This document shows, one piece after another, positions 1-17,856 of a stretch of 30,329 nt of DNA. The stretch is from a virus. Taxonomy: Duplodnaviria; Heunggongvirae; Uroviricota; Caudoviricetes. A model generated the notes under the pieces. That model had not been told where the DNA came from. It made no database searches and worked only from the letters and a program-made list of their open reading frames with translations. The stretch lies in the IMG/VR virus record IMGVR_UViG_2778261591_000021. One strand, given 5' to 3'. The position numbers and the translations under genes were made by a program. Numbering within the stretch: position 1 is the stretch's first letter; every line of letters begins with the position of its first letter.

Positions 1-651
1 AGAGTGGCCAGATGCACTGTGGCACGTCTCATGGCAGTTATGGGACTTGCCGGTGTTCTCCGGGGTAAAAAGGTCCGCACTACCGTCAGCCGGAAAGCCG
101 TTGCCGCATGCGACCGCGTAAACCGTCAGTTCGTGGCAGAACGTCCAGACCAGTTGTGGGTGGCTGATTTTACCTGGGTAAGCACATGGCAGGGCTTCGT
201 TTATGTGGCGTTCATCATTGATGTGTTCGCCGGATACATCGTGGGATGGCAGGTCTCATCATCCATGGAAACAACATTCGTGCTGGATGCACTGGAGCAG
301 GCGTTGTGGGCCCGTCGGCCGTCCGGCACAATCCATCACAGTGATAAAGGTTCTCAGTATGTATCGCTGGCCTACACGCAGCGGCTTAAGGAAGCCGGAT
401 TACTGGCATCAACAGGGAGTACTGGCGACTCGTATGACAACGCGATGGCTGAGAGCATCAATGGTCTTTACAAAGCGGAGGTAATACACCGTAAGAGCTG
501 GAAAAACCGGACAGAAGTGGAACTGGCCACACTAACGTGGGTGGACTGGTATAACAATCGACGATTGCTGGAAAGGCTGGGCCATATTCCTCCGGCAGAA
601 GCAGAAAAAGCTTATTATGCTTCCATCGGAAATAATGATCTGGCAGCCTGA
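1..651 (+). CDS. IS3-family transposase OrfB (DDE integrase core), 5' partial
   Basis: Frame is open from base 1. Carries the DDE-type signature blocks DQLWVADFTWV, HHSDKGSQYVS and YDNAMAESINGLYKAE, and ends with the IPPAEAEKAYY tail typical of IS3-family OrfB. Confidence 0.8.
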   Translation, partial: RVARCTVARLMAVMGLAGVLRGKKVRTTVSRKAVAACDRVNRQFVAERPDQLWVADFTWVSTWQGFVYVAFIIDVFAGYIVGWQVSSSMETTFVLDALEQALWARRPSGTIHHSDKGSQYVSLAYTQRLKEAGLLASTGSTGDSYDNAMAESINGLYKAEVIHRKSWKNRTEVELATLTWVDWYNNRRLLERLGHIPPAEAEKAYYASIGNNDLAA

Positions 652-690
652 GTTCACAGATAAAATACTCTCCAGGAAACCCGGGGCGGT
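1..690 (+). mobile_element. IS3-family insertion sequence, right-hand part (left part lies outside the window)
   Basis: Transposase OrfB reading frame runs in from the window start and ends at 651; about 40 bp of presumptive terminal sequence follows before the first phage gene stop at 691. The element boundary is inferred; the terminal inverted repeat was not identified. Confidence 0.55.
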
Positions 691-2298
691 TCAGTCCTCA
701 ATTAATTGCAGACGCTCAGTCATAGTTCGTTTGCCAAATGTTCTCGTCAACTCAATTTCTGCTGCCGCTTCACGGATATGACGTTGCAGCACGTAATTCA
801 CATCACTTTCAAGATAATCCCTGATAAGACTATCAGAAACATTTAATGTTCTTTCTTTCGTACTACCTGCGGCTTTTACAGAAAATACGCTGACAAAATC
901 CTGTGGAACCTTAGCACCAGTAATTTTATTAATTACGATATCCGCTGCAATTTCAGCATCCTCAGGATCCAGTGTTTTATTTCCTCTCGACCACCAGTCA
1001 ACCAAAATACGTCGAAATTTATCGCGTTCACTGATTATTTTTCCAACTTTATATATGCGTGGGAAATAGCTTGCCTGGCCTAATGCTTTCAGTTCTTCAT
1101 CTGGCGGCAATAAACCAAGCTTTTGCATTTCAACTTTCACCCGATTTAATACAGTTCGCATCGCCTGCGCCGTTTCCTGAACAACAGGATTAGCATGCAC
1201 ATCACCGCTTCGCATAGCATTCCCAACCTGCTGACGAAATGAATCAAAACTCATGTCACCACCATCAGCTTTATACTTTGCGTATGCCTGTTTATTTCCG
1301 ACAACAACAGCAGCTTCTTCACGCTGCCATCCACGTGTACGGGTTTCTACAGCTACCGGTGTTTCAATCCCCCTTTCATTTCCTTTAAGGGTGAAATTAT
1401 TTTCGGCTAACTCCAGCGCTGTTTTTCGCACCGTCTTGGACGGAGACTCCATTAACCTTGTCAAAGGAGTAAGATAGCTCCCTGCTTTCCATGCAGCCTT
1501 TCCAACCCACCCACCGGAAACAGGGGTTAAATCATCCAGAGCCGCTGTATCAATTTTCATAGCACCAACACTACCACCATCGGAAAGCGAAGCGGCAGCC
1601 CTGTCAGTCGCTGATGTAATGCTCATATTATCAAGAGCATCAGCAACCTCACGTGTGGCTGCAGCCCGGACGGATGGCGAAAGCGCAACACCAGCACTGG
1701 CAAACACGCCGCTCATCATCGCACCCGCTGCAACGTGAGCGGCACTTTCACCCCATGAGCGTGTTATTTGCTGATTATTCAGTACAACCTCGCTTAATGC
1801 TGTACCGGCAGCACCAATCGCAATCTGTGAGCCAATACGCGCCAGTGCCCCTCCTTGAGCACCGGGAATAAACATTGACGCAACAGTAACCGGATCCATT
1901 CCCGCAGCAATACTGGCAAGGGTTCCAACTACGCCAGCATCAGACAATAAACGTCTGTCTTCATTTTCATCATCTATCTGCTGCTTAATCCACGCCGTTT
2001 CCTCTGGCGATCGGGAATCTGCAAATTTCGCCCCCCAGTATTCATAACCGTGCAACTCATTTTTATCAGCATATGGGTTATAACCCTCGACCGGTTCAAA
2101 CTGTCTGGCTGGGCGGAAAAAACCAGACAGAATATTGTTCTGTCGCATTGCAGCCCCCCATACGGAAGGCTCAGGTGGCAATGGCTCAGGATTAGCCCCT
2201 TCCGGAAGGGCAACATCAAACCCAGTTTGTTCCGGCAAAACGTTACCTGACGGGATCAGTCCGTTATTAAGATCTTCAGCTTGTGCATAAACTGGCAT
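691..2298 (-). CDS. virion protein, 535 aa (internal virion/ejection protein or tail-associated)
   Basis: Last gene of the translationally coupled structural operon; its start overlaps the stop of the upstream 905-aa gene. Ala/Gly-rich. Function is assigned from position only. Confidence 0.4.
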   Translation of the reverse strand: MPVYAQAEDLNNGLIPSGNVLPEQTGFDVALPEGANPEPLPPEPSVWGAAMRQNNILSGFFRPARQFEPVEGYNPYADKNELHGYEYWGAKFADSRSPEETAWIKQQIDDENEDRRLLSDAGVVGTLASIAAGMDPVTVASMFIPGAQGGALARIGSQIAIGAAGTALSEVVLNNQQITRSWGESAAHVAAGAMMSGVFASAGVALSPSVRAAATREVADALDNMSITSATDRAAASLSDGGSVGAMKIDTAALDDLTPVSGGWVGKAAWKAGSYLTPLTRLMESPSKTVRKTALELAENNFTLKGNERGIETPVAVETRTRGWQREEAAVVVGNKQAYAKYKADGGDMSFDSFRQQVGNAMRSGDVHANPVVQETAQAMRTVLNRVKVEMQKLGLLPPDEELKALGQASYFPRIYKVGKIISERDKFRRILVDWWSRGNKTLDPEDAEIAADIVINKITGAKVPQDFVSVFSVKAAGSTKERTLNVSDSLIRDYLESDVNYVLQRHIREAAAEIELTRTFGKRTMTERLQLIED

Positions 2299-5015
2299 TA
2301 TTTAGATCCCCACGAAAAGTAATCTTTAAATTTGTCCATACGTTCGTTATGCAGGCGCTGATACTGCTCATCCAGAGCGCGATGCTTGTCTTTGAAGTTT
2401 CGTATAGCCTGTCCACGCATAATTTCTTCCTGCTCGTACTGCTCCCGTTCCTGCTGCATTTTCTTATAGGGTTCCCAATCTTCTAGTGATGGTTCCCAAC
2501 GCATAGGACGCCCATGTTTGTTATAAAACGGCTGGACCCGATCGATGCCATTTTCATCCTTAGTTCTTACCATAATGGCGTAATCACCATTACGGGGTGT
2601 TAACACGTCAGGGGTTATGAATAATTCTCCATTAATACGACTCTCAGGGGTTTTTGTCTCAACTACAGGAGCATTACCTGACGTGATCCCAAGCAACGTC
2701 GGGCTGGTTGTTATAATCTCTTTGCGCTCACCGTACATCAGCCGTTCTTTTTCAGCTTTCCACTGCGCCGCCTGCCAGCCTGACGGCCCATATTGATAAA
2801 GCGCCTCCGGTGCATATTTCATAAACTGCGCTTCTCCGTTAACCTCGCTGATACTCCAGGTGCGGGCTATCTGCTGGTTGGTCATTTGCTTCGCTACGTC
2901 AGCGTTACCACCAGCAACGCGGTAGTTAATGTCATACAGCGTCTGATAGTCATTACGGAATCTAGCTGCTTCCGGCGTCTGGTCATCCGCAGACGGATCC
3001 CAACGGAACCACTGCGCCATATTGCTGACAGCAGAATTCATCGCCTTGCTGCGATCATTTTTGTACTCTTTTGAACTCTGCGTTGATGCCAATTGAGCTT
3101 TAAGAGCATCGGTCTGGTTGTACGTAAGGTTCTGCGCCTGCTCGATAGCCGCATCAGCAGACATGCCAGAATCAGTTAGTTGCTTAACAGTCAGATAAAA
3201 ACCCTGCATATCCTTCGGCATATTTCCAATAGATGCATTGTCTGTTTCATATAACCGACTAAACAGTTCCGCCGCATTTTTAACCACTTCCTGATTGCTG
3301 GATCGGGATACTGCTGAAAGCTGCGTGATGATCTGCGAAGGCATTATGCCAGTCTGAGCCACAAGCCGAACAACCCCATCATGAGTGGAGGCATCATTAA
3401 TACGAAAGTTCTGCGCCATTTCTGTGTAATCAGCAGCTTTCTGCATTGACTTGTTGCTTGGGTCTAATTTTTCACCTATTGTCAGCGCCTCATTGAATCT
3501 GCGTGAATCCCGTTGCGCCTGAATTGCTTCATTTGATCTCTGAAGCAATGCAGACAATTTTCCGTAAGCATCGAGTTTTAACGCATAGTGAGGATCGTTA
3601 ACCTCAGGCTTCACTTTCTGCATTTCTTCTTGCTGCTGAGAAGGAGGCAAATACTGAATTGCCTGGAATATTCTCGCGTTATCAATCGCTATATCCAGTT
3701 GATTGATTATTTTATCTGCGTTTTTTCCATACCCCCTGATGATGGTCTCCTGAGCCGGTATATAATCTGGAACCTCACCGTTATATAGCTGGGCCATGGT
3801 GTTATTAATAGCTGGCTCAAGCTGTTCTAATATTAACTTCCTTTGCTTTTCTATCTGACTATTAGCAAGGTTATCTATTTGATAAATAGTCAGCGGATCC
3901 ATTCCAGTTTTATTTTTTCTATATCGGGAAAGCCACCCTTGTGTTTCTGATGGAAGATTTCGGATAAATTCTTCTTCTGATATTTCACCTTTACGTGGAT
4001 CACCGACTTTGGCGATCAGTTTATCCACGTTACCCATCCCCCAGTTATATGCTGCTCCGGTCAATATTTCGGAACCGTACTTACCATACAGTTGATTTAC
4101 ATAGTCACTGGCGAGCATTTCATGCTGTTGTTCGTCCGTAGGGTTGTATTCAACGCCACGCTTGGCCGCCAGTTCTTTTCCTGTGCCCGGCATTAACTGG
4201 TATTTCCCCTGGGCTCTCTCTCCAGAAGATGTTATCGGTCCCTCAAGAAGACTACCATCAGGATTAAAATGTCGATCACCTGATTCAACAAGGCGTATGG
4301 CACGCATGTCCATGCCTCCAGAATCATTTTTCTGAAACAGACCATTTAGCCATCCTTCTGGATTGGCAGCGGCATAATTCTTCGCCCGCATTTCTGTGGC
4401 ACTGCGATCATCACTTTCTATTTCTTCCAGAATGCGTTCTTGTGACCATCCCCTGGCAGCTCCATATCTGGCAATGGCTACCATTCTGGAATTTCTGGCT
4501 AAAGTGGCAGTTTGCGGGTCATTCCAGGCATCCGCTTCATTTTGTATCCATAATTTTCTCGTTGCCTGATATTGCTCATCTTCATAGGCATTTGTCTGCC
4601 CTATCTCATGTCTGAGAACTCCAGTACTGAACTGAATTTTCTGTGTTCTGGCTTGTTGCAAAAACATATTTCTTGCAGCTTCATCAGTCAATGAAGCAGC
4701 TATTTCTTCCACATCCTGATCAAATCCAGATATGTACTCTTGCCCCTTACCAATCGCATTTTTGCCTTGTTGTGCATAAAAACCGGTTTGAGGGTTATAA
4801 AGACGTTCATTGCTGCGCTGATTAAGCTGAAGGATGGCATCCTGAGACAATGCAACATTCGCTTTCTGCCTGGCTTCACCATATGCCACCGCATACTGAT
4901 CTGCGACATTCGCCAGCACCTGACCTGCTTGAGGAACATCGAAGGTCTGAAAACCACCGGTTTGCACACCACGACTTTGCACCTGACGTCCGGATACTGT
5001 TGGTACGACTGGCAT
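2298..5015 (-). CDS. internal virion protein with lytic transglycosylase (SLT) domain, 905 aa
   Basis: Contains SLT-like motifs (ES...GKYQLMPGTGKE...AAYNWGMGNV). Start re-assigned to the ATG at 5015, which has a GGAGG Shine-Dalgarno 7 nt upstream and overlaps the upstream stop as TAATG; the track ORF extends to 5090. Confidence 0.7.
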   Translation of the reverse strand: MPVVPTVSGRQVQSRGVQTGGFQTFDVPQAGQVLANVADQYAVAYGEARQKANVALSQDAILQLNQRSNERLYNPQTGFYAQQGKNAIGKGQEYISGFDQDVEEIAASLTDEAARNMFLQQARTQKIQFSTGVLRHEIGQTNAYEDEQYQATRKLWIQNEADAWNDPQTATLARNSRMVAIARYGAARGWSQERILEEIESDDRSATEMRAKNYAAANPEGWLNGLFQKNDSGGMDMRAIRLVESGDRHFNPDGSLLEGPITSSGERAQGKYQLMPGTGKELAAKRGVEYNPTDEQQHEMLASDYVNQLYGKYGSEILTGAAYNWGMGNVDKLIAKVGDPRKGEISEEEFIRNLPSETQGWLSRYRKNKTGMDPLTIYQIDNLANSQIEKQRKLILEQLEPAINNTMAQLYNGEVPDYIPAQETIIRGYGKNADKIINQLDIAIDNARIFQAIQYLPPSQQQEEMQKVKPEVNDPHYALKLDAYGKLSALLQRSNEAIQAQRDSRRFNEALTIGEKLDPSNKSMQKAADYTEMAQNFRINDASTHDGVVRLVAQTGIMPSQIITQLSAVSRSSNQEVVKNAAELFSRLYETDNASIGNMPKDMQGFYLTVKQLTDSGMSADAAIEQAQNLTYNQTDALKAQLASTQSSKEYKNDRSKAMNSAVSNMAQWFRWDPSADDQTPEAARFRNDYQTLYDINYRVAGGNADVAKQMTNQQIARTWSISEVNGEAQFMKYAPEALYQYGPSGWQAAQWKAEKERLMYGERKEIITTSPTLLGITSGNAPVVETKTPESRINGELFITPDVLTPRNGDYAIMVRTKDENGIDRVQPFYNKHGRPMRWEPSLEDWEPYKKMQQEREQYEQEEIMRGQAIRNFKDKHRALDEQYQRLHNERMDKFKDYFSWGSK

Positions 5016-5563
5016 TATAATCCTCCGGGTAATCTGGTTCCTGCTGCTGCCCCGATTGGCGCAGGGGTGCTTTGAGTAAACGGACTCCACGTCCCACCAA
5101 ACATCTGGTATGCACCGTATGCTTTTAGTGGTGCCGTTAACAAAGTGCTGGTCATCGATGATTTAGCAGCCGACTGAGCAGCAGCCCCCTGTGCCTGAGC
5201 ATTCATTCCCTGAACCTGATACCCATATGCCTCACGCTGAGCATTATTCACTGTCGTTAACGCATCAAGAGCGCCGAACTGAGCATTATCCGCAAAAACG
5301 TCAAGAGCTGTTCCGCTACTTAATTCCGCACCGGTAGCCCCCATAGTGGCCGCCGCAGTGCCTGAGCGTTGACGCATTTCACGACGACGCTGATCCGCTT
5401 CAATATTCCCACGATTGATTGAATCCTGTGCCTGAGCTTCAGCAATTTCAGCATTCCGATCAGCTATGGCTGACTGGTATTTTGCCTGCTTGCTCTGGCT
5501 GTACATTGACGCGGCTGTGGATGCCACTGTGACGGCAACCAAAGCGATGGCTGGGTTACACAT
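5015..5563 (-). CDS. internal virion protein, 182 aa, hydrophobic N-terminus
   Basis: N-terminal hydrophobic segment (AIALVAVTVASTAA) followed by an Ala/Gln-rich region. Size and position match a T7 gp14-like core protein. Confidence 0.4.
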   Translation of the reverse strand: MCNPAIALVAVTVASTAASMYSQSKQAKYQSAIADRNAEIAEAQAQDSINRGNIEADQRRREMRQRSGTAAATMGATGAELSSGTALDVFADNAQFGALDALTTVNNAQREAYGYQVQGMNAQAQGAAAQSAAKSSMTSTLLTAPLKAYGAYQMFGGTWSPFTQSTPAPIGAAAGTRLPGGL

Positions 5564-6027
5564 TATTTTCTCTCCATGTGAAATCTGTGGAAATTAAGAC
5601 CAAGAGCACCATAAGGCGCGGCTTCTTCAAGCCTGAATCCAAGCCAGTGCAGCCATGCCTTGGCAACATGGTTTCGCTCGTCGACGTAGTTTTCCAGGCG
5701 CGGATAAACTGCCAGCATCTGCTGCAATACAGGTCGGCAGTGGCGAAGAAATGTCTTCTGATATTTTTCAATACGGCTGGTTCCGACCAGCCAGGGTGTA
5801 CCATTGCCACCGATCATTGACGCCGGAGATACACCAAACATGGTTACCAGTACTCCGTTCGCGAACCCTGACCAGGCCATAGTCGCAGTGCGAAGACCAA
5901 CACGCAGCGCATCTTCGGTAGTCATCAGCGATACCGCATACAGTTCGTCAATATCAGCCTGACGAACATCCGGCAAAATCATCTGAAGATGCTCTTCGGT
6001 GGCGGGAATAATTTGAACATCGATCAT
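5563..6027 (-). CDS. virion-associated protein, 154 aa
   Basis: Lies within the coupled structural operon between the large tail protein and the core proteins (T7 gp13-like position). Confidence 0.35.
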   Translation of the reverse strand: MIDVQIIPATEEHLQMILPDVRQADIDELYAVSLMTTEDALRVGLRTATMAWSGFANGVLVTMFGVSPASMIGGNGTPWLVGTSRIEKYQKTFLRHCRPVLQQMLAVYPRLENYVDERNHVAKAWLHWLGFRLEEAAPYGALGLNFHRFHMERK

Positions 6028-8498
6028 CAGAATCCCCCAACAGTAAGGCGAGGAATAACGGCAAGAACAGACAGCGGCAACGGGTCAAGCTGACGGATTT
6101 TTACACGTCCGTTTTTGCCCCAGTTACTGTCCAGTTTCACTTCTACTTTTCCGGTAGCATCATCAACAGGATCATCGTAGAACTCGAATTCACGCTGTGG
6201 ATATTCGTACCATTTGCCGCCGGGCGTAGTCGCCCAGATGCCGCGACTGGCATTCACAACCAGAGTAACGGACGGGATCACCTGTTTTTTGTCCAGCAGC
6301 GTTTCCTGTCCGTTAATGTTGATATCCAGCGTTTCGAATTCAGCAGTTATTGGCAGGCCGATGTGCACTACAGCCCCCGGTGATTCCAGCGTGACGGCAC
6401 CTCCGGAAACCACTTTCTGTGGTTCCACGTTGGCATCAGAGAGAATATTTACGGTCTGGCCTTCAAGATGAGACAGGCCTCCAAATGTCCTGCGCGCCAT
6501 CTGCCAGTTCGTGGTGGACACATTCCTGAGGGATGGCGGGACGTTCCTGTTAGCACGAACCACTACTGCGGTATTACTGGTTACAGAAATAATGTCGCAA
6601 CGTAATTCTTTTGACACTTCATCGCCAGTATCAGGAACAGTTCCGGCATAAGGGAACTGTAGTTGCGCGCCGACATCACTACTGGTGAAGTACGCACCAC
6701 CAGAAACACTGATTGTATATTCCGCGCGATAATCCCATTCGCCAGAGCCACCAGTGATGGTCATCGTTCTGTCAGACGTATTTCTTCCATCATAGCTAAG
6801 GCCAGAATCAACAAAGAAAGCATCTTCATCGCTGGTAAATAAACGGCTGGACAGCCGCTCGATGTATCTCACTGTTTGCCCGTTAACGGTTCGGTTAACG
6901 ACGAAATACACCGCATCTTCATTGCCTTCGCTGATACTGCATGTGCTTTCATATTTTCCGGTACTGGATTGTGGTGCCCATGCAAAAACCTGCTGATCAC
7001 GCAAATAGGTCATCACCAGTAATTTACCGTCATCACGAATGCAGAAGGCGCTGGAGTAAGGGACAATAGAGAAGCACCAGTCAACAATGCTGTGCTTCTG
7101 AAAAAGATGATTGGCAAGGATGGTCAGGTCGTTCCCCTGATAGCCGTCAACATCGAATGAGTAGGCCAGATCACGGACAACACTGCCTTTCTCCTGGACG
7201 AACAGAGCAATATTCGCTACGGCAATTGGTGGGACGTTGCTTGAGCCATTTGATCCCTGAGAGCTGAATGCAAATGATGATGGGGTTAACACTTTGTTCT
7301 GGTCGCCGGTGATGACGTACTCACCTCCGGAAGTCAGCGCCACCAGAGAACCAACATCAATCAGGTGGCGGATCTCATTAACCTGACGCCCGGCATAGGT
7401 GTAGATAATTCTGTCGTCATCCTGCGTAGGATTGCTTTTGCCAAAATCCTTATAATCCCCGGTACGGCTGGCCCAGATAGTCTGAGGGAACGCAGTCGAT
7501 GCGGCGAAGTAAAGACGTTGTTGATAATAAACAACAGTGCCAGGATAACCATTAACACTGTTCCAGGCATATTTAGCCCATTTATAGCTGGCATTATCCT
7601 CGCCAACTACCTGCGAAGGGATATAGGAAATCACCTCGGCAGTTGCAGTAGTTCCATTTGCAGCAGTGATACGGGCAATGCCAAAACCACTGTGCAGATA
7701 TTCCCACTCAATGCCGGTATCATCATCACCGGATCCGCCCCAGCCATCCCATGATGTGCCTTCTGTATGCGAAGGGCGCAAAGTACCTGTTTTGCCTGCT
7801 GTAACGGCGCGATAGTAGTTACTGTCTGCACGGCGAATATCGCCAATCGACGTACTCTTACTGGTTTCCCATACCGGCACTGAATCAACTGCAGGCTGTT
7901 CCAGATAGAACAATTTGCCTACCTGCTCCGCGCCAAAAATAGAGGCGCTTGCCGTTAACGTAATTGTCCCGGTGCTGGCGCTGGCATAAACCGTCACTGA
8001 CTCGTCAATATTGATATCTTCAAATGGTCCGTTCTTCGTTACCACATCAACCAGTTGCCAGTTGTCATGCGCATAGCGACGCAACTCTTTCGGCGGGTAT
8101 GCCGGATGAACAAGCGTAAGCACGTCTGCGCTTTGCGTGAATTTAATTCGGAACAGATCGGCTTCAGTATATGGCGTGGCAATTTCATAAATAACATTGC
8201 TGCTGTTCAGCACCAACGCACCATCTTTGATAACGCGCATGTACTGGTGTCCGAACTCCAGAGCATAAGTCTGAACCGTCGAGAACTGGAACGGTATCAG
8301 GCGGCATTTCCGATTTGGGTATTTGGCGGCACCGACAAAACGCGTACCAGGTCGATTCTCAACGCCGCCATACTGCCGCACGATAAAGTTATCGCACTTG
8401 CGCAATGCTACCTGGTACTTCGCCATGTCGATACGCCCGTACAACGACGGTCCAATCTCACCACCGGCAAAGCTGGGCTGGATCCAACTGATAGCCAT
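6027..8498 (-). CDS. large tail protein, 823 aa (podovirus tail tube/hub-like)
   Basis: Beta-rich, Gly/Ser/Thr-rich sequence. Position after a 202-aa protein and before the core proteins mirrors T7 gp11/gp12 order and sizes. Confidence 0.45.
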   Translation of the reverse strand: MAISWIQPSFAGGEIGPSLYGRIDMAKYQVALRKCDNFIVRQYGGVENRPGTRFVGAAKYPNRKCRLIPFQFSTVQTYALEFGHQYMRVIKDGALVLNSSNVIYEIATPYTEADLFRIKFTQSADVLTLVHPAYPPKELRRYAHDNWQLVDVVTKNGPFEDINIDESVTVYASASTGTITLTASASIFGAEQVGKLFYLEQPAVDSVPVWETSKSTSIGDIRRADSNYYRAVTAGKTGTLRPSHTEGTSWDGWGGSGDDDTGIEWEYLHSGFGIARITAANGTTATAEVISYIPSQVVGEDNASYKWAKYAWNSVNGYPGTVVYYQQRLYFAASTAFPQTIWASRTGDYKDFGKSNPTQDDDRIIYTYAGRQVNEIRHLIDVGSLVALTSGGEYVITGDQNKVLTPSSFAFSSQGSNGSSNVPPIAVANIALFVQEKGSVVRDLAYSFDVDGYQGNDLTILANHLFQKHSIVDWCFSIVPYSSAFCIRDDGKLLVMTYLRDQQVFAWAPQSSTGKYESTCSISEGNEDAVYFVVNRTVNGQTVRYIERLSSRLFTSDEDAFFVDSGLSYDGRNTSDRTMTITGGSGEWDYRAEYTISVSGGAYFTSSDVGAQLQFPYAGTVPDTGDEVSKELRCDIISVTSNTAVVVRANRNVPPSLRNVSTTNWQMARRTFGGLSHLEGQTVNILSDANVEPQKVVSGGAVTLESPGAVVHIGLPITAEFETLDININGQETLLDKKQVIPSVTLVVNASRGIWATTPGGKWYEYPQREFEFYDDPVDDATGKVEVKLDSNWGKNGRVKIRQLDPLPLSVLAVIPRLTVGGF

Positions 8499-9106
8499 CA
8501 GGACAACCTCGCAATGGTAAACTCGTCAACCGGTGGCTGTGGTTCCTGTGATTCATTCTGGCTATGCGAACCAGCACTAAGAATCACGCGATTGTACATA
8601 TTGAGAGCAAATGTACCGAGATCCGCATTCCCAGTCAGCGCCATGTTAATGGCTGCCGCAAGACGCCAGGCCAGCGCCTCCATAAAAATGGCATCAAACA
8701 TGTTCACATCTGAAACGCGAGAGACATACTTGAGCCATGCCTGCGGCTGGTCTGTATAGATCAATTTTCCTGTTCCGTTGGTGTCTGCACCAACTTCGTA
8801 CTGAACGCGCATTGCTGCTGTTGGATTGCGTACACCAGGAAGCATAATTTCAGTAATGCGCAGACAATCGGACGGGTACTGGTACGCATATTCCCAGTCA
8901 GGCGGTGGATTGCTCGTATCTGCAAGCGCCACGCGTTTGGTAGCAAAGTTCCAGTCAAAATCAGAAAGCACAGCATCACGGCAGGCCTCAAAGTGCAGCG
9001 AACATTCCCCCGCTTCCTTGCTGGCTTCCGTCAGGCTGTTAATGCTGCGGCTATTGCCAATATTGGACAGCGCACGATTACAGATCTCTACTACAGAGGC
9101 CATCAC
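8498..9106 (-). CDS. tail adaptor / tail tubular protein A-like, 202 aa
   Basis: Gene order and size; start overlaps the stop of the upstream gene. Confidence 0.4.
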   Translation of the reverse strand: MMASVVEICNRALSNIGNSRSINSLTEASKEAGECSLHFEACRDAVLSDFDWNFATKRVALADTSNPPPDWEYAYQYPSDCLRITEIMLPGVRNPTAAMRVQYEVGADTNGTGKLIYTDQPQAWLKYVSRVSDVNMFDAIFMEALAWRLAAAINMALTGNADLGTFALNMYNRVILSAGSHSQNESQEPQPPVDEFTIARLS

Positions 9107-9426
9107 TCACCTCCGTTACCGTACAGAGTTTCAGCCGCTGATTTTTCTACATCCCCGGAAACAGGAGCGATCGCCATATCAGTGATCTGCAGATCGGCGC
9201 TGCGATTAACACCATCGTCAGTTTCTCTGGCAGACAGGCCTCGAATAACAGCCTTTGCAGTTATCATCACTTCTGTTCCGACGCCCTGAGGTTGCGCCTT
9301 CAGCTTATTCAATGTGTCGTTATTAAGAGTGATGCACAGCCCCCACGGGTATTCATCGCGAGTTCTGGTTTCTCCGCTCTCATCCTGGTAGCTGTCAGTG
9401 CCGGTTTTGAGGTTTACGAGTTCCAT
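9103..9426 (-). CDS. small virion protein (head-tail connector or decoration candidate)
   Basis: Track ORF starts with GTG at 9432. The ATG at 9426 has an AGGAG Shine-Dalgarno 8 nt upstream and is preferred. Confidence 0.4.
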   Translation of the reverse strand: MELVNLKTGTDSYQDESGETRTRDEYPWGLCITLNNDTLNKLKAQPQGVGTEVMITAKAVIRGLSARETDDGVNRSADLQITDMAIAPVSGDVEKSAAETLYGNGGE

Positions 9427-9435
9427 ATACACTCC

Positions 9436-9460
9436 TGCAATAAAGGGGCCGAAGCCCCTT
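9436..9460 (-). terminator. rho-independent terminator inside the structural operon
   Basis: On the minus strand: 7-bp GC-rich stem (AAGGGGC/GCCCCTT) with a 4-nt loop, followed by TTTATT, placed directly before the RBS of the next gene. Confidence 0.5.
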
Positions 9461-9476
9461 GTCGGATTCGCGAGGC

Positions 9477-9821
9477 TTACACGCCCAGTTCTTTACGCTT
9501 ATCTGCGATCTTCTCGCGGAGCGTTTCGGCTTTAGCGTTATGGTGTGGCTTCTCGTTAAAGAGCAATTCGTACTCTTCACGGAGCTTATCCAGTTCACCA
9601 TCATCTGACACATCGTTGATGATTTTGGTGCTGGTTGCTGCCATAGACACCTTTCCTGCTACCTTTGCTTTTGCCTGTCTGGCTGCATCGTTAACAGGTT
9701 CCAGTGCGCTACCAGGCTCACCTTCGTATTCGATTTCTGCCCCCTCCGGCCACAGTGTGTTATGGATATGAGAGAGGCGCAGAACGCGGTATCTTGGTTT
9801 CTCACCTGACATCGATATCAC
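9477..9821 (-). CDS. hypothetical virion-module protein, 114 aa
   Basis: ORF in operon context; charged, coiled-coil-like C-terminus. Confidence 0.4.
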   Translation of the reverse strand: MISMSGEKPRYRVLRLSHIHNTLWPEGAEIEYEGEPGSALEPVNDAARQAKAKVAGKVSMAATSTKIINDVSDDGELDKLREEYELLFNEKPHHNAKAETLREKIADKRKELGV

Positions 9822-9822
9822 C

Positions 9823-10260
9823 TTAACCAGTTACTTTTGAGCGGATCGGGTACGGCGTATTGGCATCAACATCCAGACTGATACCCGCAGTGAATTTGCC
9901 GGCCGTTAGTGGGCCAGTTGCGACGGAGTAGTTAACACGCAGATATCGCTGAACACCGGCAGGCACCTTTGCAGAAACAACTCGTTTACCTGCTGTCAGG
10001 GTAGCCTTTGCCAGTGCGCCACTATCATAAATAGTGGACCATGAGCTGTTATTCTCACTCGTCTGCAACTGGATGTTTACAGTTGCCTCACCACTTGCCG
10101 TGGCGGCTTCGTTAACCAGCACCCAAAACTCAAGCGGGTAACCCACACCGATATCGCGACGGTTTCCGTCAATTGGACCGAGATCGATTACGTCAGTAGA
10201 AGCCGCGGTATCAGTTACCGCCTGTGCTTCGGAGAACATCAACAGTTTGTCGGTGATCAT
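9823..10260 (-). CDS. putative capsid decoration / beta-sandwich structural protein, 145 aa
   Basis: Immediately downstream of the major capsid gene with a GGAG RBS; Thr/Ser/Ala-rich. Confidence 0.4.
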   Translation of the reverse strand: MITDKLLMFSEAQAVTDTAASTDVIDLGPIDGNRRDIGVGYPLEFWVLVNEAATASGEATVNIQLQTSENNSSWSTIYDSGALAKATLTAGKRVVSAKVPAGVQRYLRVNYSVATGPLTAGKFTAGISLDVDANTPYPIRSKVTG

Positions 10261-10275
10261 CTTCTTTCTCCATTA

Positions 10276-10295
10276 GTGGGCCTGTTGCGGCCCAC
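10276..10295 (-). other. 7-bp GC stem-loop between major capsid stop and next RBS
   Basis: GTGGGCC-tgttgc-GGCCCAC with no T-run after it; likely an mRNA stabiliser or attenuator rather than a full terminator. Confidence 0.35.
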
Positions 10296-10311
10296 AGGTT
10301 AATAACAGGCG

Positions 10312-11304
10312 TTACACCACGCGGGCTTCTGTTTCCAGAAGTGCGTCAATTTCGCGAATCGGCACACCACGAAGTGCTGTCCACCATTCGCCTTCTGTCT
10401 CTTTCACGCTGATCGCCAGAGAACTCTTCTCCAGAGATTGCAGGTCAAGCACTTCGTTAATGGTTCTGTTCATGTAGAAAACAGGACGTCCCATCCCACG
10501 ATTTGGGATTCGATGAAGGGCACGAATCATCAGTTTTGCGATATTCGCGGCAGTAGAAGGAGCGTCAAGATTACTGACATCAATGTTTGCGATACGAACT
10601 ACATAGCGCCAGTCACGTAATGTCAGCCCGTTGTCCCACTTATAATGGGTACGATAACCTTCGTACTTGCCGCCATTAGCATCTTCCAGTGTCACCTGGC
10701 CTTTATCTTCCATCTGAATGCCAGCCTTCTGTCCTTTCGGGAAGATGCCATGCACGGTGTTTTCGCCCCACACCACTAACCAGATTGAAGTGTTATCTGT
10801 ACCCGTGCCACCAGCATCAATGATGTTCTGAGCATTACCCGCAGACAGGCTGGAATATCGGGAGGACAGTCCCATAAACTGCTGAGGGTTAACGCTGGAA
10901 TCACCGTAAAACAGTGTCTGCGCCATCGCCTGATTCATCGCTTCAATAAATGCTCGGTCTTCAGACAGACGGAATTCGGCAGTATTACCGTTCAGATCAG
11001 CCAGAGACTTATCGACTTCAGCATAGGTTTCCAGCATGCCAATGGAATCGGTGACCTGCACTGTGGTTGATTTGCTTGGCTGTACGCCATAGTTCAGCAA
11101 ACGCCAGGTAGCGGAAGGTAAACCAGAACGAATGGTGGTTCGGTGTCCGGTAGGAAGGTTTCCTTCAACAAAAGGCATATCCTGAAGAATTGGGTTAGTT
11201 TGACTGAGAAGCTCGATAATCTTATCGACTTTCCCGTTTGGATCGACGCGCTTACCCCAGTCAGCCAGCGTTAGCGCAGTTAAGCCTTTAACAGCCATTG
11301 TCAT
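10312..11304 (-). CDS. major capsid protein, 330 aa
   Basis: Position directly after the scaffold gene, size, and composition typical of HK97-fold capsid proteins; strong operon context. Confidence 0.7.
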   Translation of the reverse strand: MTMAVKGLTALTLADWGKRVDPNGKVDKIIELLSQTNPILQDMPFVEGNLPTGHRTTIRSGLPSATWRLLNYGVQPSKSTTVQVTDSIGMLETYAEVDKSLADLNGNTAEFRLSEDRAFIEAMNQAMAQTLFYGDSSVNPQQFMGLSSRYSSLSAGNAQNIIDAGGTGTDNTSIWLVVWGENTVHGIFPKGQKAGIQMEDKGQVTLEDANGGKYEGYRTHYKWDNGLTLRDWRYVVRIANIDVSNLDAPSTAANIAKLMIRALHRIPNRGMGRPVFYMNRTINEVLDLQSLEKSSLAISVKETEGEWWTALRGVPIREIDALLETEARVV

Positions 11305-11312
11305 TTCCTCTC

Positions 11313-12014
11313 TTATTTGCCATAGAGCACTTCGGCCGCACTACGCTGGCCTTCATTACCACCGGTGACCATGCCATCTTCAGACATCGCCTTTCCGATT
11401 TTCACGAACGTTTTGACCAGATCAGGGTGATTACCCAGCCCGGTGGTGTTCAGATATTCTTTGAGTTCAGGTGTCCCGAACTGGTCAAGCGCACGCTGTG
11501 CGGCGCTAAGGTTAGAAATCAACTTGTCGCCACCGATTTCTTTGTCGGCTTTTACATCCGCAGCCCACTGCTCGGTTGTTTTCTGCCAGGCTTCTGCCTG
11601 GCGCTGCTGAACACCTGCCAGAATCTTCGGATAAGCATCAACCAGCTTTTGCGCTTGCTCGTTGGTCAGGTTTAGTTCTCGCGCCACCGGCTCGAATTCC
11701 TTCAACGCTTCTGTATCCAGCTCTACGCCTTCGGCAGCCTGAAACTCGTACTTTTCAGGCGCACCCTCTGGTTTATCGCCGTCCTTTTTTTCATCCTGCT
11801 TATCGTTTTCAGGCTTTTTGTCATCAGCAGGTTTATCGCCATCAGCAACAGGTTGTGGCTTATCACCTTCCTGTTGTGATGGATCACCAACTGGAGCAGG
11901 GTTATCACCTGCAGGCGCTGACGGTTCTGACGCAGCCGGAGCTGCTCCACCATCGACTGGTTGCTCATTGCAAAGACGGCGATACAGCAAACGCTCAAAT
12001 AAATTCATGATCAC
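11313..12014 (-). CDS. scaffolding protein
   Basis: Highly acidic, Pro/Asp/Lys-rich low-complexity centre with a helical C-terminus, located between portal and capsid genes. The true start may be the ATG two codons downstream. Confidence 0.55.
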   Translation of the reverse strand: MIMNLFERLLYRRLCNEQPVDGGAAPAASEPSAPAGDNPAPVGDPSQQEGDKPQPVADGDKPADDKKPENDKQDEKKDGDKPEGAPEKYEFQAAEGVELDTEALKEFEPVARELNLTNEQAQKLVDAYPKILAGVQQRQAEAWQKTTEQWAADVKADKEIGGDKLISNLSAAQRALDQFGTPELKEYLNTTGLGNHPDLVKTFVKIGKAMSEDGMVTGGNEGQRSAAEVLYGK

Positions 12015-12307
12015 TCCTGTTCACTGGCCTCTTTGGCCATCTTCAAATACTGTTCAGGGCAATGCGCCATAACGCGCTGAAACAGTTCCAGCGCCAGATT
12101 GCGTTGCCCCTCATTAAATGCCATTGCCATAGCGTCCATCGGTGAGATAGCGGAAAACACACGGCCTTTCTCCAGCACCGACCAGACAACGCGACGCCCC
12201 TGTTCACTGCTCATGACAAAGCGAATGTCATCAATTTCACGCTGCGCCATGTCACGTTGCTTACGGGCGTTTTCTTCTTTCAGTTGATCGTCTTCGTAAT
12301 CTGTCAT
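12011..12307 (-). CDS. hypothetical protein, 98 aa
   Basis: Coupled ORF between portal and scaffold genes. Confidence 0.4.
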   Translation of the reverse strand: MTDYEDDQLKEENARKQRDMAQREIDDIRFVMSSEQGRRVVWSVLEKGRVFSAISPMDAMAMAFNEGQRNLALELFQRVMAHCPEQYLKMAKEASEQE

Positions 12308-13983
12308 TGTGATTGCCCACCCTGACCACTAACTGCATTCGCCATAGCTGACAAAACACTCGGATCCGAAGTTTTAGCTTCGCTTAGTGTCTTGGCACCC
12401 TGTGCCGCCGCCATCCCCATCGCCATCATTTGTTGCTGCTGTTGCTGCTGTGCCCGTTGCTGGCGAGCCTGCTCAACCTGTTCCTGCGGAACAATGACGG
12501 TTGGAGACACTCCGGACATATCAGCGAATGCATCGATCGCCTGATCAACGTTGAGTTTGTCGAGAGCTTCTGGTTTCGCTTGCGCAAGTTGACCAATGAA
12601 GTTAACCGTGGACGCCAGACTGGACAGGCCGATAGACTTCTGCGCCTGAGCCATGACGGAAATGTATTCGACCTTCAGGGGCATACCTTCCATCGCGTCA
12701 GGCGGTGGCGGCAGCATGTTTTTACGCACCATCATCGAGAAAGCGCGGTCAATGAGAGGGTTAAGACATTCGTCGTTCAGACGCTCCAGAACCGGCCCCA
12801 ACATCAGAAGCTTTTCTTCTTTCATTTCGATCACTGCTTCAACAGGCATCGAGCGGGTATTGATGTTCTGCAACATCATGAACAGATCGACAAAGTAGGC
12901 GCTGTTAATGATTTGGCGGGTGTCCTGAATGTCTGCTACCAGATCTGCTGTACTGGGGTTAACCAGATAAGCAGGCCTGAAACCATCCTGACCAGTAATC
13001 TGATCGATATACGTGATGTCGCCAGGAAGAAGAGAGGCGCGCTGATTCTTGAGGGAAGTCGGAGCAACCATCGGCGGATTGGTGGCTTTATCAATCAACT
13101 GCGACTTGCGCTTCTGGAGAAGCTGCAATGCCTTAACAGGTCCAAGCGCCAGCATACCCGGGCATGATGATCCATAAACATCTTCGCCGTTAACTTCCCA
13201 GCGCGGAGCCATAATTGGAAACTCATCGAATCCGGACTCACGCAACAACTTGTCGTTATCGCCACCAACCTCGTAATAAACCGATTTGAATGGCTTGTTC
13301 TTGCTATCCAGCTTCGATGTATCGCGGTCAATGTTCGGGTAAACCGAATGCATCACTTCAATCCACTTCTCGTAGGTGCCGCTTTCCCACATGCTTTTTA
13401 CGGATTCGCTGACGTTATTTAGTCCGAACTCCTGAACAAGCTGACGAACAGTCATAGAGAACTTGCGAAAACAGGTGTCCACACTGCCACGAGGTGAGTT
13501 AGCCAGGTAGTAACTTCCTATCGGGAATGGCATTGTACGAATGATGTCCTCGTCATCCTCCAGCACCGCCATTGCGCCAGTGCTGTATGTGCCGAGGCTT
13601 CCGTATAACTGCGGCAGCGACTGATAGAGATTCGACTTATTGAACATATCGTTCATGCGGTTCTGAACTGCCTCAAGCCACAACTTAACAGGGCCATAAT
13701 CCATCATTTCAGGATCTGGCGTAGCCAGGCGAAACCACGGACGCGCGGGGCTTGTGATGCCTGACATCATGCCGCTGGCGAGAGTGCGCGCCGCCATAGT
13801 CCCGGTCGAATCAATAATGCGTGTATTGCGCCGATCGTTACGGTTGGCCTCAGAAGTCAGAAAGCGGGAACCACGCGGGTTGATGTAATCACTCAACTCG
13901 CGCCAGTGCGGCTCGAACGACTGACGCTCGCTTTCAAGTTGTGCGAACTGTTTGTTCAATCGCTCTTTAGTTGTTTCCGCCAT
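12304..13983 (-). CDS. portal (head-tail connector) protein, 559 aa
   Basis: Size and position between terminase and scaffold; podovirus-type portal. Confidence 0.7.
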   Translation of the reverse strand: MAETTKERLNKQFAQLESERQSFEPHWRELSDYINPRGSRFLTSEANRNDRRNTRIIDSTGTMAARTLASGMMSGITSPARPWFRLATPDPEMMDYGPVKLWLEAVQNRMNDMFNKSNLYQSLPQLYGSLGTYSTGAMAVLEDDEDIIRTMPFPIGSYYLANSPRGSVDTCFRKFSMTVRQLVQEFGLNNVSESVKSMWESGTYEKWIEVMHSVYPNIDRDTSKLDSKNKPFKSVYYEVGGDNDKLLRESGFDEFPIMAPRWEVNGEDVYGSSCPGMLALGPVKALQLLQKRKSQLIDKATNPPMVAPTSLKNQRASLLPGDITYIDQITGQDGFRPAYLVNPSTADLVADIQDTRQIINSAYFVDLFMMLQNINTRSMPVEAVIEMKEEKLLMLGPVLERLNDECLNPLIDRAFSMMVRKNMLPPPPDAMEGMPLKVEYISVMAQAQKSIGLSSLASTVNFIGQLAQAKPEALDKLNVDQAIDAFADMSGVSPTVIVPQEQVEQARQQRAQQQQQQQMMAMGMAAAQGAKTLSEAKTSDPSVLSAMANAVSGQGGQSQ

Positions 13984-13997
13984 TTCAATGACTCCGG

Positions 13998-14204
13998 TTA
14001 CTGACCAAGCAGCGTTTTACCGCTGGTATTAGCGGTTGATGTGTCGCCCTGAGAACCGGTAAGCAGCGTAGAACTACGACCAGCAGCAGCGCGACGGCGA
14101 CGAGTTTCTTCGTCGCGGGCATCAACAACGGCGGCATCCTGCTCCTGTGGTGCTGCCTGAACTTCTGGTGTTGCAGGCACTGATGGTGAGCTACCCATGC
14201 ACAT
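13998..14204 (-). CDS. small hypothetical protein, 68 aa
   Basis: ATG with GGAG 10 nt upstream; first gene of the structural operon after the accessory island. Low-complexity sequence. Confidence 0.3.
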   Translation of the reverse strand: MCMGSSPSVPATPEVQAAPQEQDAAVVDARDEETRRRRAAAGRSSTLLTGSQGDTSTANTSGKTLLGQ

Positions 14205-14272
14205 ATCAATGACTCCGTACGCAATTAAATTATTACCAATTTAACCACATATGATTTATTTATCGTAGATAG

Positions 14273-14309
14273 TTGACATTTAACGCACAAATTATTACCT
14301 TTCAGGTAA
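14273..14309 (+). promoter_or_regulatory. promoter-like TTGACA followed by a TTACC-N5-GGTAA operator-like palindrome
   Basis: TTGACA at 14273-14278; TTACCTTTCAGGTAA at 14295-14309. Same layout as the early promoter at 25090-25132. Points toward the structured region and tRNA. Confidence 0.45.
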
Positions 14310-14329
14310 CCAAAGAGTTCATTCCGGTT

Positions 14330-14631
14330 ACTAACCTGACTGGCTTGTCGTTAAATTGAACAGGTGGAGTGAGCTTTTATTTTGAGCAGTACGGCGTATG
14401 GCACATGCGCCGATAGCGGTCTGGATACGTTTAAGGGGCACCCTCCCTTGCTCGGGCAAACGAACCAGGTAGCCGGAATGTGCAAGTCGAGCGGTTTTAT
14501 TCCGCGCACGGGGATTCACCATCCCGGCGATTCGGTGTGACGCCTCGGAAGAGACGAGGGTACAACGATGAGAGCATTTATGGAGCCGCGACAAAGTGTG
14601 GCGCCTTAACAGGCTAAGTGCTCTCAGCGTT
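14330..14631 (+). other. GC-rich, hairpin-dense non-coding region upstream of the tRNA (candidate structured RNA or tRNA leader)
   Basis: No convincing ORF on either strand. Multiple perfect local hairpins, for example CCTCG-gaagaga-CGAGG and CGGAAT...ATTCCG. Lies between a promoter and the tRNA. Confidence 0.25.
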
Positions 14632-14708
14632 GTGGCATTAGCTCAGTTGGACAGAGCAACCGCCTTCTAAGCGGTTGGTCGCAGGTTCGAATCCTGCATG
14701 CCACGCCA
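14632..14708 (+). tRNA. tRNA-Arg (anticodon TCT, reads AGA)
   Basis: Full cloverleaf: 7-bp acceptor stem GTGGCAT/ATGCCAC, D-arm GCTC/GAGC, anticodon stem ACCGC/GCGGT with loop CTTCTAA, T-arm GCAGG-TTCGAAT-CCTGC, discriminator G and encoded CCA. Resembles but is not identical to an enterobacterial argU-type tRNA as recalled from memory. Confidence 0.85.
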
Positions 14709-14751
14709 GAATCACGCCTAAGGACCGTGATGCCAGAAGTTCCAGGGGCTT

Positions 14752-14795
14752 GGCGGTGATGGTTTCCCTTGAAGGACTATCACCGCCCTTTTTAC
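14752..14795 (+). terminator. rho-independent terminator downstream of the tRNA
   Basis: GGCGGTGAT...ATCACCGCC stem followed by CTTTTTA. Confidence 0.55.
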
Positions 14796-14870
14796 AGCAG
14801 GACGCCATTGCGATGACTTCATGCTGTAAACCAGTACAGCCACGGAAGGCATAACTCATTGCTTCCAGTT

Positions 14871-14896
14871 CGCCCGGTTCGCCGGGCATTTTTTTG
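14871..14896 (+). terminator. rho-independent terminator
   Basis: GCCCGG-ttcg-CCGGGC stem followed by ATTTTTTT. Confidence 0.65.
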
Positions 14897-14900
14897 ATTG

Positions 14901-14929
14901 ATGACCGCAAATTACCTTAAAGGTATAAT
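14901..14929 (+). promoter_or_regulatory. promoter-like element with a perfect -10 TATAAT (14924-14929) overlapped by an operator-like palindrome
   Basis: Palindrome TTACCTTAAAGGTAT at 14912-14926; a possible -35 ATGACC lies 17 bp upstream of the -10. Sits immediately before the moron ORF. Confidence 0.4.
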
Positions 14930-14930
14930 C

Positions 14931-15749
14931 ATGAAAAACTTCAAGGTAATTAGCATGTTTGAATCGTTCAAAGAGCTGTTTTTATCTACTGCCAATACTG
15001 CCGTGAATCGAGCCAAAAACCCTGTGCTTGGTGCTTTTGTTATGTCCTGGTGCGCCTTCAACTGGAAATCAATTCTTTATCTATTTTTTAGCAAATCAAA
15101 CATAATAGATAAAATTTCATATATCTCAGATAACAGCACATGGAAAACTGTTATGTTTTATCCATGCTTATCTGTAATTGCTATCTGCTGCCTATTACCA
15201 TGGGTAAACAATATCATTAACGTATGGCAAGCAAAGCCTCTTGATAATAATGACTCAATCGAAAATCACCTGAAGGCAAGAAAAATCCAGCGTGAAACAA
15301 GACTGCAGAGGTTATTGGCTAAAAAAGATGTTACATACGACAAAGTTAAGACTGGCGCGGAAAAAGACATCCAAGAGATGAAAGAAGAGATTATTCGATC
15401 AAAGAATAGTATGGGGGAATTGACTGCCGAGTTGAAAGCTAAAGATGACGAATTGAGATCCGCCAGTGCACAGTTAGCAGCTCTAAATCATTCATTAAAA
15501 GAGATATCGGAAACTCTTGGAAGAATGAATGAGGCATATAAGACCCTCCAAAATGATTTCGACGAATACAAACTCAAATACCCTGAAAAATCTCAAATAA
15601 AAAGCCTTGCACTTGGCAACGGCCAAACAATTAGCAACGTTTTGGAGCAACACAACTTATCCGGATTAAAATCTGGTAAGCCAAACGTTTTTAATAACTT
15701 TGGTGTTCTATCTGGATTATCAGGTTTCGAGGATAAAAATAAAGACTAA
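14931..15749 (+). CDS. AT-rich accessory (moron) protein, 272 aa: two predicted TM helices plus a long coiled-coil domain; function unknown
   Basis: Opposite strand to all flanking structural genes and visibly AT-rich relative to them. ATG at 14931 has AAAGG upstream; the track ORF starts at TTG 14898. Hydrophobic segments are VLGAFVMSWCAFNWKSILYLFF and VMFYPCLSVIAICCLLPWV; heptad-like charged region from about residue 100 to 220. Confidence 0.6.
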   Translation: MKNFKVISMFESFKELFLSTANTAVNRAKNPVLGAFVMSWCAFNWKSILYLFFSKSNIIDKISYISDNSTWKTVMFYPCLSVIAICCLLPWVNNIINVWQAKPLDNNDSIENHLKARKIQRETRLQRLLAKKDVTYDKVKTGAEKDIQEMKEEIIRSKNSMGELTAELKAKDDELRSASAQLAALNHSLKEISETLGRMNEAYKTLQNDFDEYKLKYPEKSQIKSLALGNGQTISNVLEQHNLSGLKSGKPNVFNNFGVLSGLSGFEDKNKD

Positions 15750-17221
15750 GCATATGGATCGTACTCGGTAAGCGCCTTGCCTTGCTGGTTCTGCTGCCCG
15801 GGAAGTCGCAGGCGCTTTGACACCGGGAAAGCAAACGTCAGCAGTAGCGCATCGCCTTTACCAGGCGAACGCCCAAGTCGTTCTTTGATATCTTCCTTCG
15901 GTTCGATAACGATTTTACCGTCCACGCGAACTTTGTACTCTGCCGCCGACAGATCGTCCGCTGTTTCCTGGTCATCCAGCATCCCGCCCAACCTCAGCCA
16001 TGTCTTGCATGAGTTGAACATCTCCCCGCGCTTGTTAAGCATCTGCGGGTCAGTGGACGCACCGCCGAACGGAACAAGTTGCCATGTACGCCCCCAGCCA
16101 TCACCGATTGACTTCAAACCGGTTCCGTAACCGAAGTCGATGAACACCGCGTCAGCCTGATACTGGTCTTCAAAGTCAGCGATACGCTTCGCCATAATCA
16201 GATCGTCGGTAGTCTTGTTGCCAGTCCATAGCACCTTACTATGCAACCCCTGCCGCAGGTATATCACCGCGTCATCAACGCCTGAATATGCCGGGTCAAC
16301 ACCGATTATCACCGGAGCATGTGCCACCTGCGCAGCGGTTACCACCCGTTTCATTGCCTCATCAGTAAGACCGGTAGGGATAAACTGCAATTCAGATGCA
16401 TCAGGGAATATGCCGCGCACACGGATTTTAACGAAGTCGCTGTCTTCCCCGTAGTCATCAACCCATTTCTGCAACTGCTGTTTGTTAGTACCTTCCACCG
16501 TCCGGCTGTCAATCTGCGCAGTTTTCCAGCGGTGTTTGTATTTGCGGAAACATTCGCGAAAACGCCCGGTATTACGTGTAGGGTTTCCGAACGCCACCCA
16601 GATAATCTCAGTGTCTTCGTCCGTAAGCGCACCCTCAGCAACTTCCCACACCAGATCCGCAATGTTCGACGCTTCATCGAATACCACGATGATGCGTTTG
16701 CGCTCGTTGTGTAGTCCGGCGAATGCCTCAGTGTTGTGCTCAGACCAGGGGATTGCGTCAGCTCGCCACCGCTTGTCGTGCCCAGGATCATTGCTGTACA
16801 TCGCAGTAGCGGTACAGGTAAACCAGTCTTTCGTGATAGCAAGGTTCGACCACTTGATAATTTCCGGCCAGGTCTTCGTTCGTAGCTGGTTGTCGGTGTT
16901 GGCGGTCACCACGACCTTACAATCCTCGCAAGTGGACATGCCCCAGTTGATCAGCATTGAGATGAATGCGGATTTACCAATACCATGACCAGAAGCGCGT
17001 GCCAGCATAAGCGGCTGATAGCGCGTCTCTGGATTCTGCAGGTGATCACGTATCTCTCGGAACGCATCAGCCTGCCACTGACGTGGGCCGGTAGCATGTG
17101 CCAGTTCAGTCCCCTCTTCCCCCCACGGGAACGCATATAGGGCATAGCCAAGCGGATCGTGAGTGAACCCTGCAATATCCTCGATCAACTGCTCTTCAGG
17201 AGATAACGCTGTATCTGTCAC
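15746..17221 (-). CDS. terminase large subunit, 491 aa
   Basis: Walker A-like GHGIGKS, ATPase and nuclease acidic blocks (VVFDEAS, GVDPAYSG), and position after the small subunit with overlapping stop/start. Confidence 0.9.
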   Translation of the reverse strand: MTDTALSPEEQLIEDIAGFTHDPLGYALYAFPWGEEGTELAHATGPRQWQADAFREIRDHLQNPETRYQPLMLARASGHGIGKSAFISMLINWGMSTCEDCKVVVTANTDNQLRTKTWPEIIKWSNLAITKDWFTCTATAMYSNDPGHDKRWRADAIPWSEHNTEAFAGLHNERKRIIVVFDEASNIADLVWEVAEGALTDEDTEIIWVAFGNPTRNTGRFRECFRKYKHRWKTAQIDSRTVEGTNKQQLQKWVDDYGEDSDFVKIRVRGIFPDASELQFIPTGLTDEAMKRVVTAAQVAHAPVIIGVDPAYSGVDDAVIYLRQGLHSKVLWTGNKTTDDLIMAKRIADFEDQYQADAVFIDFGYGTGLKSIGDGWGRTWQLVPFGGASTDPQMLNKRGEMFNSCKTWLRLGGMLDDQETADDLSAAEYKVRVDGKIVIEPKEDIKERLGRSPGKGDALLLTFAFPVSKRLRLPGQQNQQGKALTEYDPYA

Positions 17222-17814: not shown

Positions 17815-17821
17815 AACCACC

Positions 17822-17853: not shown

Positions 17854-17856
17854 ATG

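Follow-up and report, generated by a model that had tools for sequence, protein, structure and literature searches.

The window analysed here is a stretch of 30,329 nucleotides, and PHROGs and Pfam scans of its main open reading frames (ORFs) showed the genes of a prophage. Read from right to left, the genes encode an integrase, an excisionase-like regulator, a methyltransferase, and a RecE/RecT-like pair; next leftward are repressor and Cro-like regulators, replication O/P-like proteins, a resolvase, an HNH endonuclease, and the small and large terminase subunits; and further leftward are a tRNA-Arg, the portal, protease, and major capsid proteins, the Bbp16 cement and gp10 staple proteins, the tail tube/nozzle proteins, and the internal virion proteins. 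The tyrosine integrase (29079 to 30329, − strand; phrog_1) is 99% identical to the integrase that lies beside guaA in TUM9803. Toward the opposite end, the tail tube/nozzle proteins of 823 and 202 amino acids (aa) are encoded at positions 6027 to 9106 (− strand; phrog_376 and phrog_394/9239). They are followed by two small internal virion proteins of 182 aa (T7 gp14 family) and 154 aa (5015 to 6027, − strand; PF24072; phrog_418 and phrog_308), both intact, and by an intact 905-aa internal virion protein with an SLT domain (2298 to 5015, − strand; Pfam SLT, phrog_1044), which has the same length as gp37 of phage TL-2011b. One further virion gene, described below, is split by an insertion sequence (IS) at the left end of the window. 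All the other structural genes are full length, with lengths equal to those of TL-2011b, and the IS is the sole lesion visible in the window. TL-2011b (NC_019445, from Escherichia coli O103:H25) was the nearest named phage, with 97.7% identity over 92% of window positions 694 to 17892. The two genomes match in collinear blocks and share their gene order from the terminase to gp38, and the host prophage appears from these matches to be a TL-2011b-like short-tailed temperate phage (podovirus).

Some smaller features were also seen in the prophage. The tRNA-Arg (anticodon TCT; 14632 to 14708, + strand) lies between the terminase and the portal genes, and a tRNA-Arg is annotated at the same position in the F11 and TUM9803 prophages and in several phiV10-type phages. 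Between this tRNA and the large terminase gene, on the opposite strand, is a 283-aa ORF (14898 to 15749, + strand) that matched phrog_4780, a family of unknown function. It has no Pfam domain and gave weak coiled-coil-type matches to DndD and LmuB models. The ORF is present in TUM9803, other small genes take its place in TL-2011b, and it resembles a moron. At the nucleotide level, the RecE-like and RecT-like genes (25607 to 27530, + strand) did not match TUM9803 or TL-2011b, although their flanks did; this region is a swapped recombination module. A defence-system scan of the unknown ORFs of the window found nothing past the generic HNH endonuclease and methyltransferase.

The IS3-family element at the left end occupies window positions 1 to 693 (+ strand), which correspond to element positions 618 to 1310 of 1,310 bp, i.e., the right-hand 53% of the element. 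The ORF at positions 1 to 651 (+ strand) represents the C-terminal 216 codons of the orfB transposase, including the DDE/rve catalytic domain, and its stop codon is at 649 to 651. This ORF matched Pfam rve (5.9e-27; 94.3 bits versus a cut-off of 32.6), as well as rve_3 and rve_2, and it matched the NCBIfam equivalog transpos_IS3 with 240 bits (cut-off, 160) over profile positions 166 to 369 of 369. Over its whole length, the segment from 1 to 693 shows 100% identity with IS copies of many O157:H7 genomes; in individual genomes of O157:H7 and related E. coli, this element was found at anywhere from 13 to at least 40 sites. A complete copy in O157:H7 PV15-279 was used as the reference. It is 1,310 bp long, has TG...CA ends, and is flanked by a 3-bp duplication, TGC; for its transposase, the record annotates a programmed frameshift with a pseudoknot at about element positions 336 to 452. 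This frameshift region lies upstream of element position 618, at which the window starts, and orfA and the left end of the element lie outside the window.

The right terminal inverted repeat of the element is at positions 652 to 693 (+ strand) and ends in ...CCCGGGGCGGTTCA. The reverse complement of the right end at 693 (...GGGGCGGTTCA) is the same as the 13 terminal bases, TGAACCGCCCCGG, at the left end of the PV15-279 copy, and the termini of the PV15-279 copy itself match each other, both being TGAACCGCCCCGG. The TG...CA form of the terminal inverted repeat was found at the right end of the IS, which is the visible end, and the boundary of the element is base 693 (...GGTTCA) rather than base 690. 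The next three bases, GTC at 694 to 696, are the predicted 3-bp target site, as judged from the TGC duplication around the PV15-279 copy; one of the two flanks is visible here. Taken together, the element is probably an IS629-type member of the IS3 family, a name that we take from its identity to the multicopy element of O157:H7 and from its length and ends.

On the other side of this boundary is a 535-aa ORF (691 to 2298, − strand) that represents the N-terminal 53% of a protein of 1,004 to 1,007 aa; the C-terminal 469 codons (47%) are absent. The phage part of the ORF, at positions 694 to 2298 (− strand), comprises the first 535 codons of the gene for a 1,004-aa internal virion (ejection) protein, T7 gp16-like and homologous to TL-2011b gp38. 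Its TGA stop codon at 691 to 693 (− strand) is the reverse complement of the last three IS bases. When window positions 1 to 2400 were compared by megablast with 5,426 complete E. coli genomes, many matches of 98.5 to 99.6% identity were found, all starting at about base 690. The F11 counterpart is 3,015 bp long (1,004 aa) and runs 1,407 bp beyond the position at which IS sequence takes over in the window. Base-by-base alignment with this intact F11 gene showed that the homology breaks at window position 693/694, which is codon 535 of 1,004, and the last residues of the stub before the IS are ...TERLQLIED. In 46 complete E. coli genomes, a 1,001-bp stretch across the insertion site runs on without interruption, and the IS-gene junction of the window was found by megablast in none of the 5,426 complete genomes. 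The only matches covering the full length of positions 1 to 2400 were those of UTME-14 and UTME-10, at 93.8% identity. The 535-aa product is listed as WP_249544776.1, from a single NCBI contig, and the exact product is recorded from two contigs when NCBI and Logan sources are combined. Its 90%-identity cluster has 621 members, of which the representative is 1,006 aa long and the 13 other listed members are 1,004 to 1,007 aa long. From these data, the IS almost certainly interrupts the ejection-protein gene. As the IS contributes an in-frame TGA right at its end, what is left is a 535-aa stub that resembles a normal gene.

A few substitutions are particular to the stub. Residues A253, A294, and S488 differ from those of all five close full-length relatives compared (T, T, and P, respectively), and relative to the F11 gene there are four nonsynonymous changes and one synonymous change. 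These private substitutions could reflect relaxed constraint after the truncation, with numbers too small to say.

The identity of the split gene was assessed from its full-length relatives. The full-length F11 homologue matched phrog_342, "internal virion protein with endolysin domain" (E = 1.7e-209), with residues 24 to 1002 aligned to positions 203 to 1225 of 1,235, and in tblastn the full-length homologue also showed weak similarity to proteins annotated as internal virion proteins in other podoviruses. The split gene is the last one in the internal virion run, after the genes for the 154-aa (phrog_308), 182-aa (T7 gp14 family), and 905-aa SLT proteins, and this run itself comes after the tail tube/nozzle genes (202 and 823 aa). 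Given the family match and the position at the end of the internal virion run, the product is therefore assigned as a T7 gp16-like ejection protein. Domain scans of the 535-aa stub gave no Pfam or NCBIfam match, the 1,004-aa form had no NCBIfam match, and sequence search gave no solved structure matching the full-length protein.

The first base of the window coincides with base 1 of NJUJ01000012.1, a 113,473-bp contig from the E. coli draft assembly GCA_002459835.1. The reverse complement of the contig locus is exactly window positions 1 to 12298, and the locus terminates at contig base 1. Short-read assemblies usually break inside multicopy repeats such as IS elements. Among the main ORFs across the window, PHROGs and Pfam scans found no tailspike, tail fibre, holin, lysis endolysin, or spanin gene, in agreement with the first-pass annotation, which had recognised none of them, and the complete TL-2011b-like set of tailspike, holins, endolysin, and spanin was not found within the window. 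The 823-aa and 202-aa proteins were ruled out as tailspikes, being "tail protein" and "tail tubular protein" in PHROGs. The SLT protein carries an "endolysin" label in PHROGs and in the TL-2011b RefSeq record but was rejected as the lysis endolysin and taken as a virion enzyme, since it lies in the internal virion block and the lysis enzyme of this phage family is a GH19 protein encoded beside the holins. The tailspike and lysis genes are out of view because the draft contig stops inside the IS. Their absence from the window is a contig-end effect and is no evidence of loss.

What normally lies beyond this point can be seen in the relatives. In TL-2011b, gp38 is intact (3,015 bp; 1,004 aa), is 99.4% identical to the F11 protein, and differs from the stub at 5 of 535 residues. 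After gp38 come gp39 to gp47, which include an Arc-like repressor, an antirepressor, a YafO-type toxin, and Bro, and onward are the gp48 tailspike, an O-acetyltransferase, the unnamed gp50, the gp51 holin, the gp52 endolysin, and the gp53 Rz-like spanin. The gp50 counterparts in F11 and TUM9803 are annotated as putative holins. The F11 and TUM9803 prophages have the same order as TL-2011b and end at host yfgI, and their integrase end adjoins guaA. Measured in the relatives from the insertion point, the near end of the tailspike gene is about 5.9 to 7.3 kb away and the far end of the lysis cassette about 10.7 to 12.7 kb away. The first-pass annotation suggested that the tailspike and lysis genes might be found past the IS, and this agrees with how the genes are arranged in TL-2011b, F11, and TUM9803; however, they would not follow immediately, as ∼1.4 kb of the split gene and then the 4- to 6-kb Arc/antirepressor/Bro block come before the tailspike in these relatives. 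The tailspike type itself varies, being an endosialidase in F11 and GH28-related in TUM9803. Such differences between relatives are expected for a receptor-binding protein.

Searches for the other half of the gene gave no product assignable to this strain. A C-terminal fragment from this strain was not recovered either in a protein search with the missing 468 aa or in the cluster listings, which contained many contig-end fragments of the ejection protein from other assemblies. The best match, P0001, was rejected as the other gene half, as it is a fusion of another kind, with the joint near residue 617. This 441-aa protein comes from Logan run assemblies (a cluster of 82) and consists of a 53-residue hydrophobic N terminus and ejection-protein residues ∼617 to 1004; it is a separate rearrangement of the same ejection gene in other genomes. 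A second candidate, P0060, was rejected as a product of the IS junction, as it starts nine residues ahead of the junction with native sequence. A one-genome-per-species collection, in which the source assembly is not included, gave only homologues of 26 to 79% identity from other genera (Enterobacter, Raoultella, Trabulsiella, and others). The variant of the C-terminal half differs in every known relative.

A close precedent was found in E. coli UTME-14 (NZ_CP157090.1), where a 1,310-bp IS3-family element lies in the same ejection gene. That element is 95.8% identical to the IS in the window and is inserted at about codon 685, versus codon 535 here, and both halves of the ejection gene are kept, together with the lysis cassette. 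The UTME-14 locus at 7902 to 12693 and 16580 to 17808 contains two 1,310-bp IS3-family copies, an IS2, and several broken genes; in the same region, a tail protein gene is truncated and other genes survive as remnants. UTME-14 shows a more advanced state of IS-driven decay of the same prophage type.

The following sequence of events is proposed. An IS629-type element would have transposed into codon 535/536 of the T7 gp16-like ejection gene of a prophage that presumably lies between guaA and yfgI, as in its relatives. The element being multicopy, the short-read assembly would then have broken inside it, 693 bp in. By synteny, the off-contig part should amount to about 11 to 13 kb and should hold the remaining 469 codons, the Arc/antirepressor/Bro block, the tailspike, two holins, the GH19 endolysin, and the Rz-like spanin. 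We regard this explanation as a whole, i.e., an IS insertion that splits the ejection gene, a contig break in the IS, distal genes located elsewhere, and a defective prophage, as very probable. Its more specific part, a simple insertion with the distal genes kept on another contig, we regard as likely; it is favoured because no other decay is present in the window and because UTME-14 retains both gene halves and the lysis cassette.

The most serious alternative is that the IS marks the endpoint of a deletion or rearrangement in which the C-terminal half, the antirepressor block, the tailspike, and the lysis cassette were lost or moved. If so, the remnant would keep the integrase, recombination, replication, packaging, and head genes, which we judge a rather unlikely state of affairs, as is the deletion itself. 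IS629 has been linked to genomic deletions (PMC9943667), and the related UTME-14 prophage has several IS copies, a truncated tail gene, and remnants in this region; in addition, the window shows only one flank of the IS and nothing past the element. However, there is no direct sign of a deletion, and with the comparable insertion in UTME-14 neither gene half nor the lysis cassette has been lost. Elsewhere the window is undecayed, which suggests a recent single event. A contig break in a multicopy IS is also the normal outcome of short-read assembly and is silent on what lies beyond. On balance, these observations argue for the simple insertion.

Two other readings concern the junction itself. 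The first-pass annotation had correctly seen an IS3-family element, as the rve domains, the 240 bits to transpos_IS3, and the 100% identity to O157:H7 copies found here confirm, but had placed it directly after a complete 535-aa gene, as if this were the last structural gene and the IS were intergenic. The ORF does have a start, a stop, and an ordinary accession number (WP_249544776.1). Nevertheless, 14 of the 14 other listed cluster members are 1,004 to 1,007 aa long, intact homologues continue for 469 codons past base 694, the stop codon lies inside the IS terminus, and the PHROG match of the full-length form extends to the end of the profile. The F11 alignment, with its homology break at 694, and the cluster lengths refuted the complete-gene reading, to which we attach next to no credence: the ORF is truncated, and its stop comes from the IS. 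That annotation had also supposed that the IS might have disrupted tailspike or lysis genes; the IS does disrupt something, but what was cut in half is the last virion gene. It could instead be argued that the IS was misjoined to the phage gene during assembly and that the gene is intact in the real genome, as the junction is <700 bp from the end of a draft contig and the IS is multicopy. This is very improbable, since the break coincides precisely with the canonical end of the IS (...GGTTCA), as in a real insertion, and the exact 535-aa product occurs on two contigs (NCBI and Logan).

The likely consequence of the insertion can be gauged from T7, whose morphogenesis and genome translocation both require gp14, gp15, and gp16 (PMC8954989). 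Loss of infectivity is predicted because 47% of the T7 gp16-like protein is gone and the T7 core proteins are essential, and the split ejection-protein gene alone is thus predicted to render the prophage non-infective. Intact tailspike and lysis genes and a clean target-site duplication beyond the IS would not rescue the prophage, as the ejection-protein gene would still be split. Another thought is that the insertion acts as a reversible off-switch of the prophage through excision promoted by the IS-excision enhancer (IEE). In IEE strains, IS629 is excised at high frequency (PMC9943667, PMC9397093), and IEE-promoted excision restored a disrupted lacZ in O121:H19 STEC (PMC9397093). If the same applied here, precise excision would restore the 1,004-aa gene and could revive the prophage, for which the distal 11 to 13 kb and IEE in the strain would be needed. 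We consider such a switch improbable. For annotation, the case means that a seemingly complete 535-aa protein with an NCBI accession number is an IS-made stub and that prophage-completeness calls on contig-end windows will be wrong in both directions.

Compared with known systems, the features of this locus are familiar. The ejection protein resembles T7 gp16 in the near full-length match to the PHROG family and in the preceding T7 gp14-family gene. It differs in having no match to the first ∼200 profile positions, the assumed place of the endolysin domain for which the family is named. An N-terminal lytic transglycosylase domain was not found in the same polypeptide; the SLT domain is in the preceding 905-aa protein. 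Among phages, the phiV10/epsilon15-like temperate podoviruses are named as related to TL-2011b. phiV10, HEMP4, the O157 typing phages, and similar phages match the window only from about position 4270, whereas TL-2011b and F11 match it from 694. This pattern would place a mosaic boundary at ∼4270 to 5026, inside the SLT gene, with the distal ejection-gene module apparently swapped between near-identical phages. As for the element, no IS3-family member is more abundant in O157 than IS629, which is also known to inactivate genes and to cause deletions (PMC9943667). The element in the window agrees with IS629 in its 100% identity (693 bp) to the O157:H7 copies, and the complete copy supplies the 1,310-bp length, the TG...CA ends, and the 3-bp duplication; the window holds the right 53%, with the left end, orfA, the frameshift site, and the duplication out of the window. 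IS629-type elements, TL-2011b-like prophages, and the inactivation of E. coli prophage genes by IS elements are all already known. The insertion site alone is peculiar to this assembly, and what happened here is ordinary prophage decay, one further private case of IS629-type elements disabling prophages, which is well documented in IS-rich E. coli.
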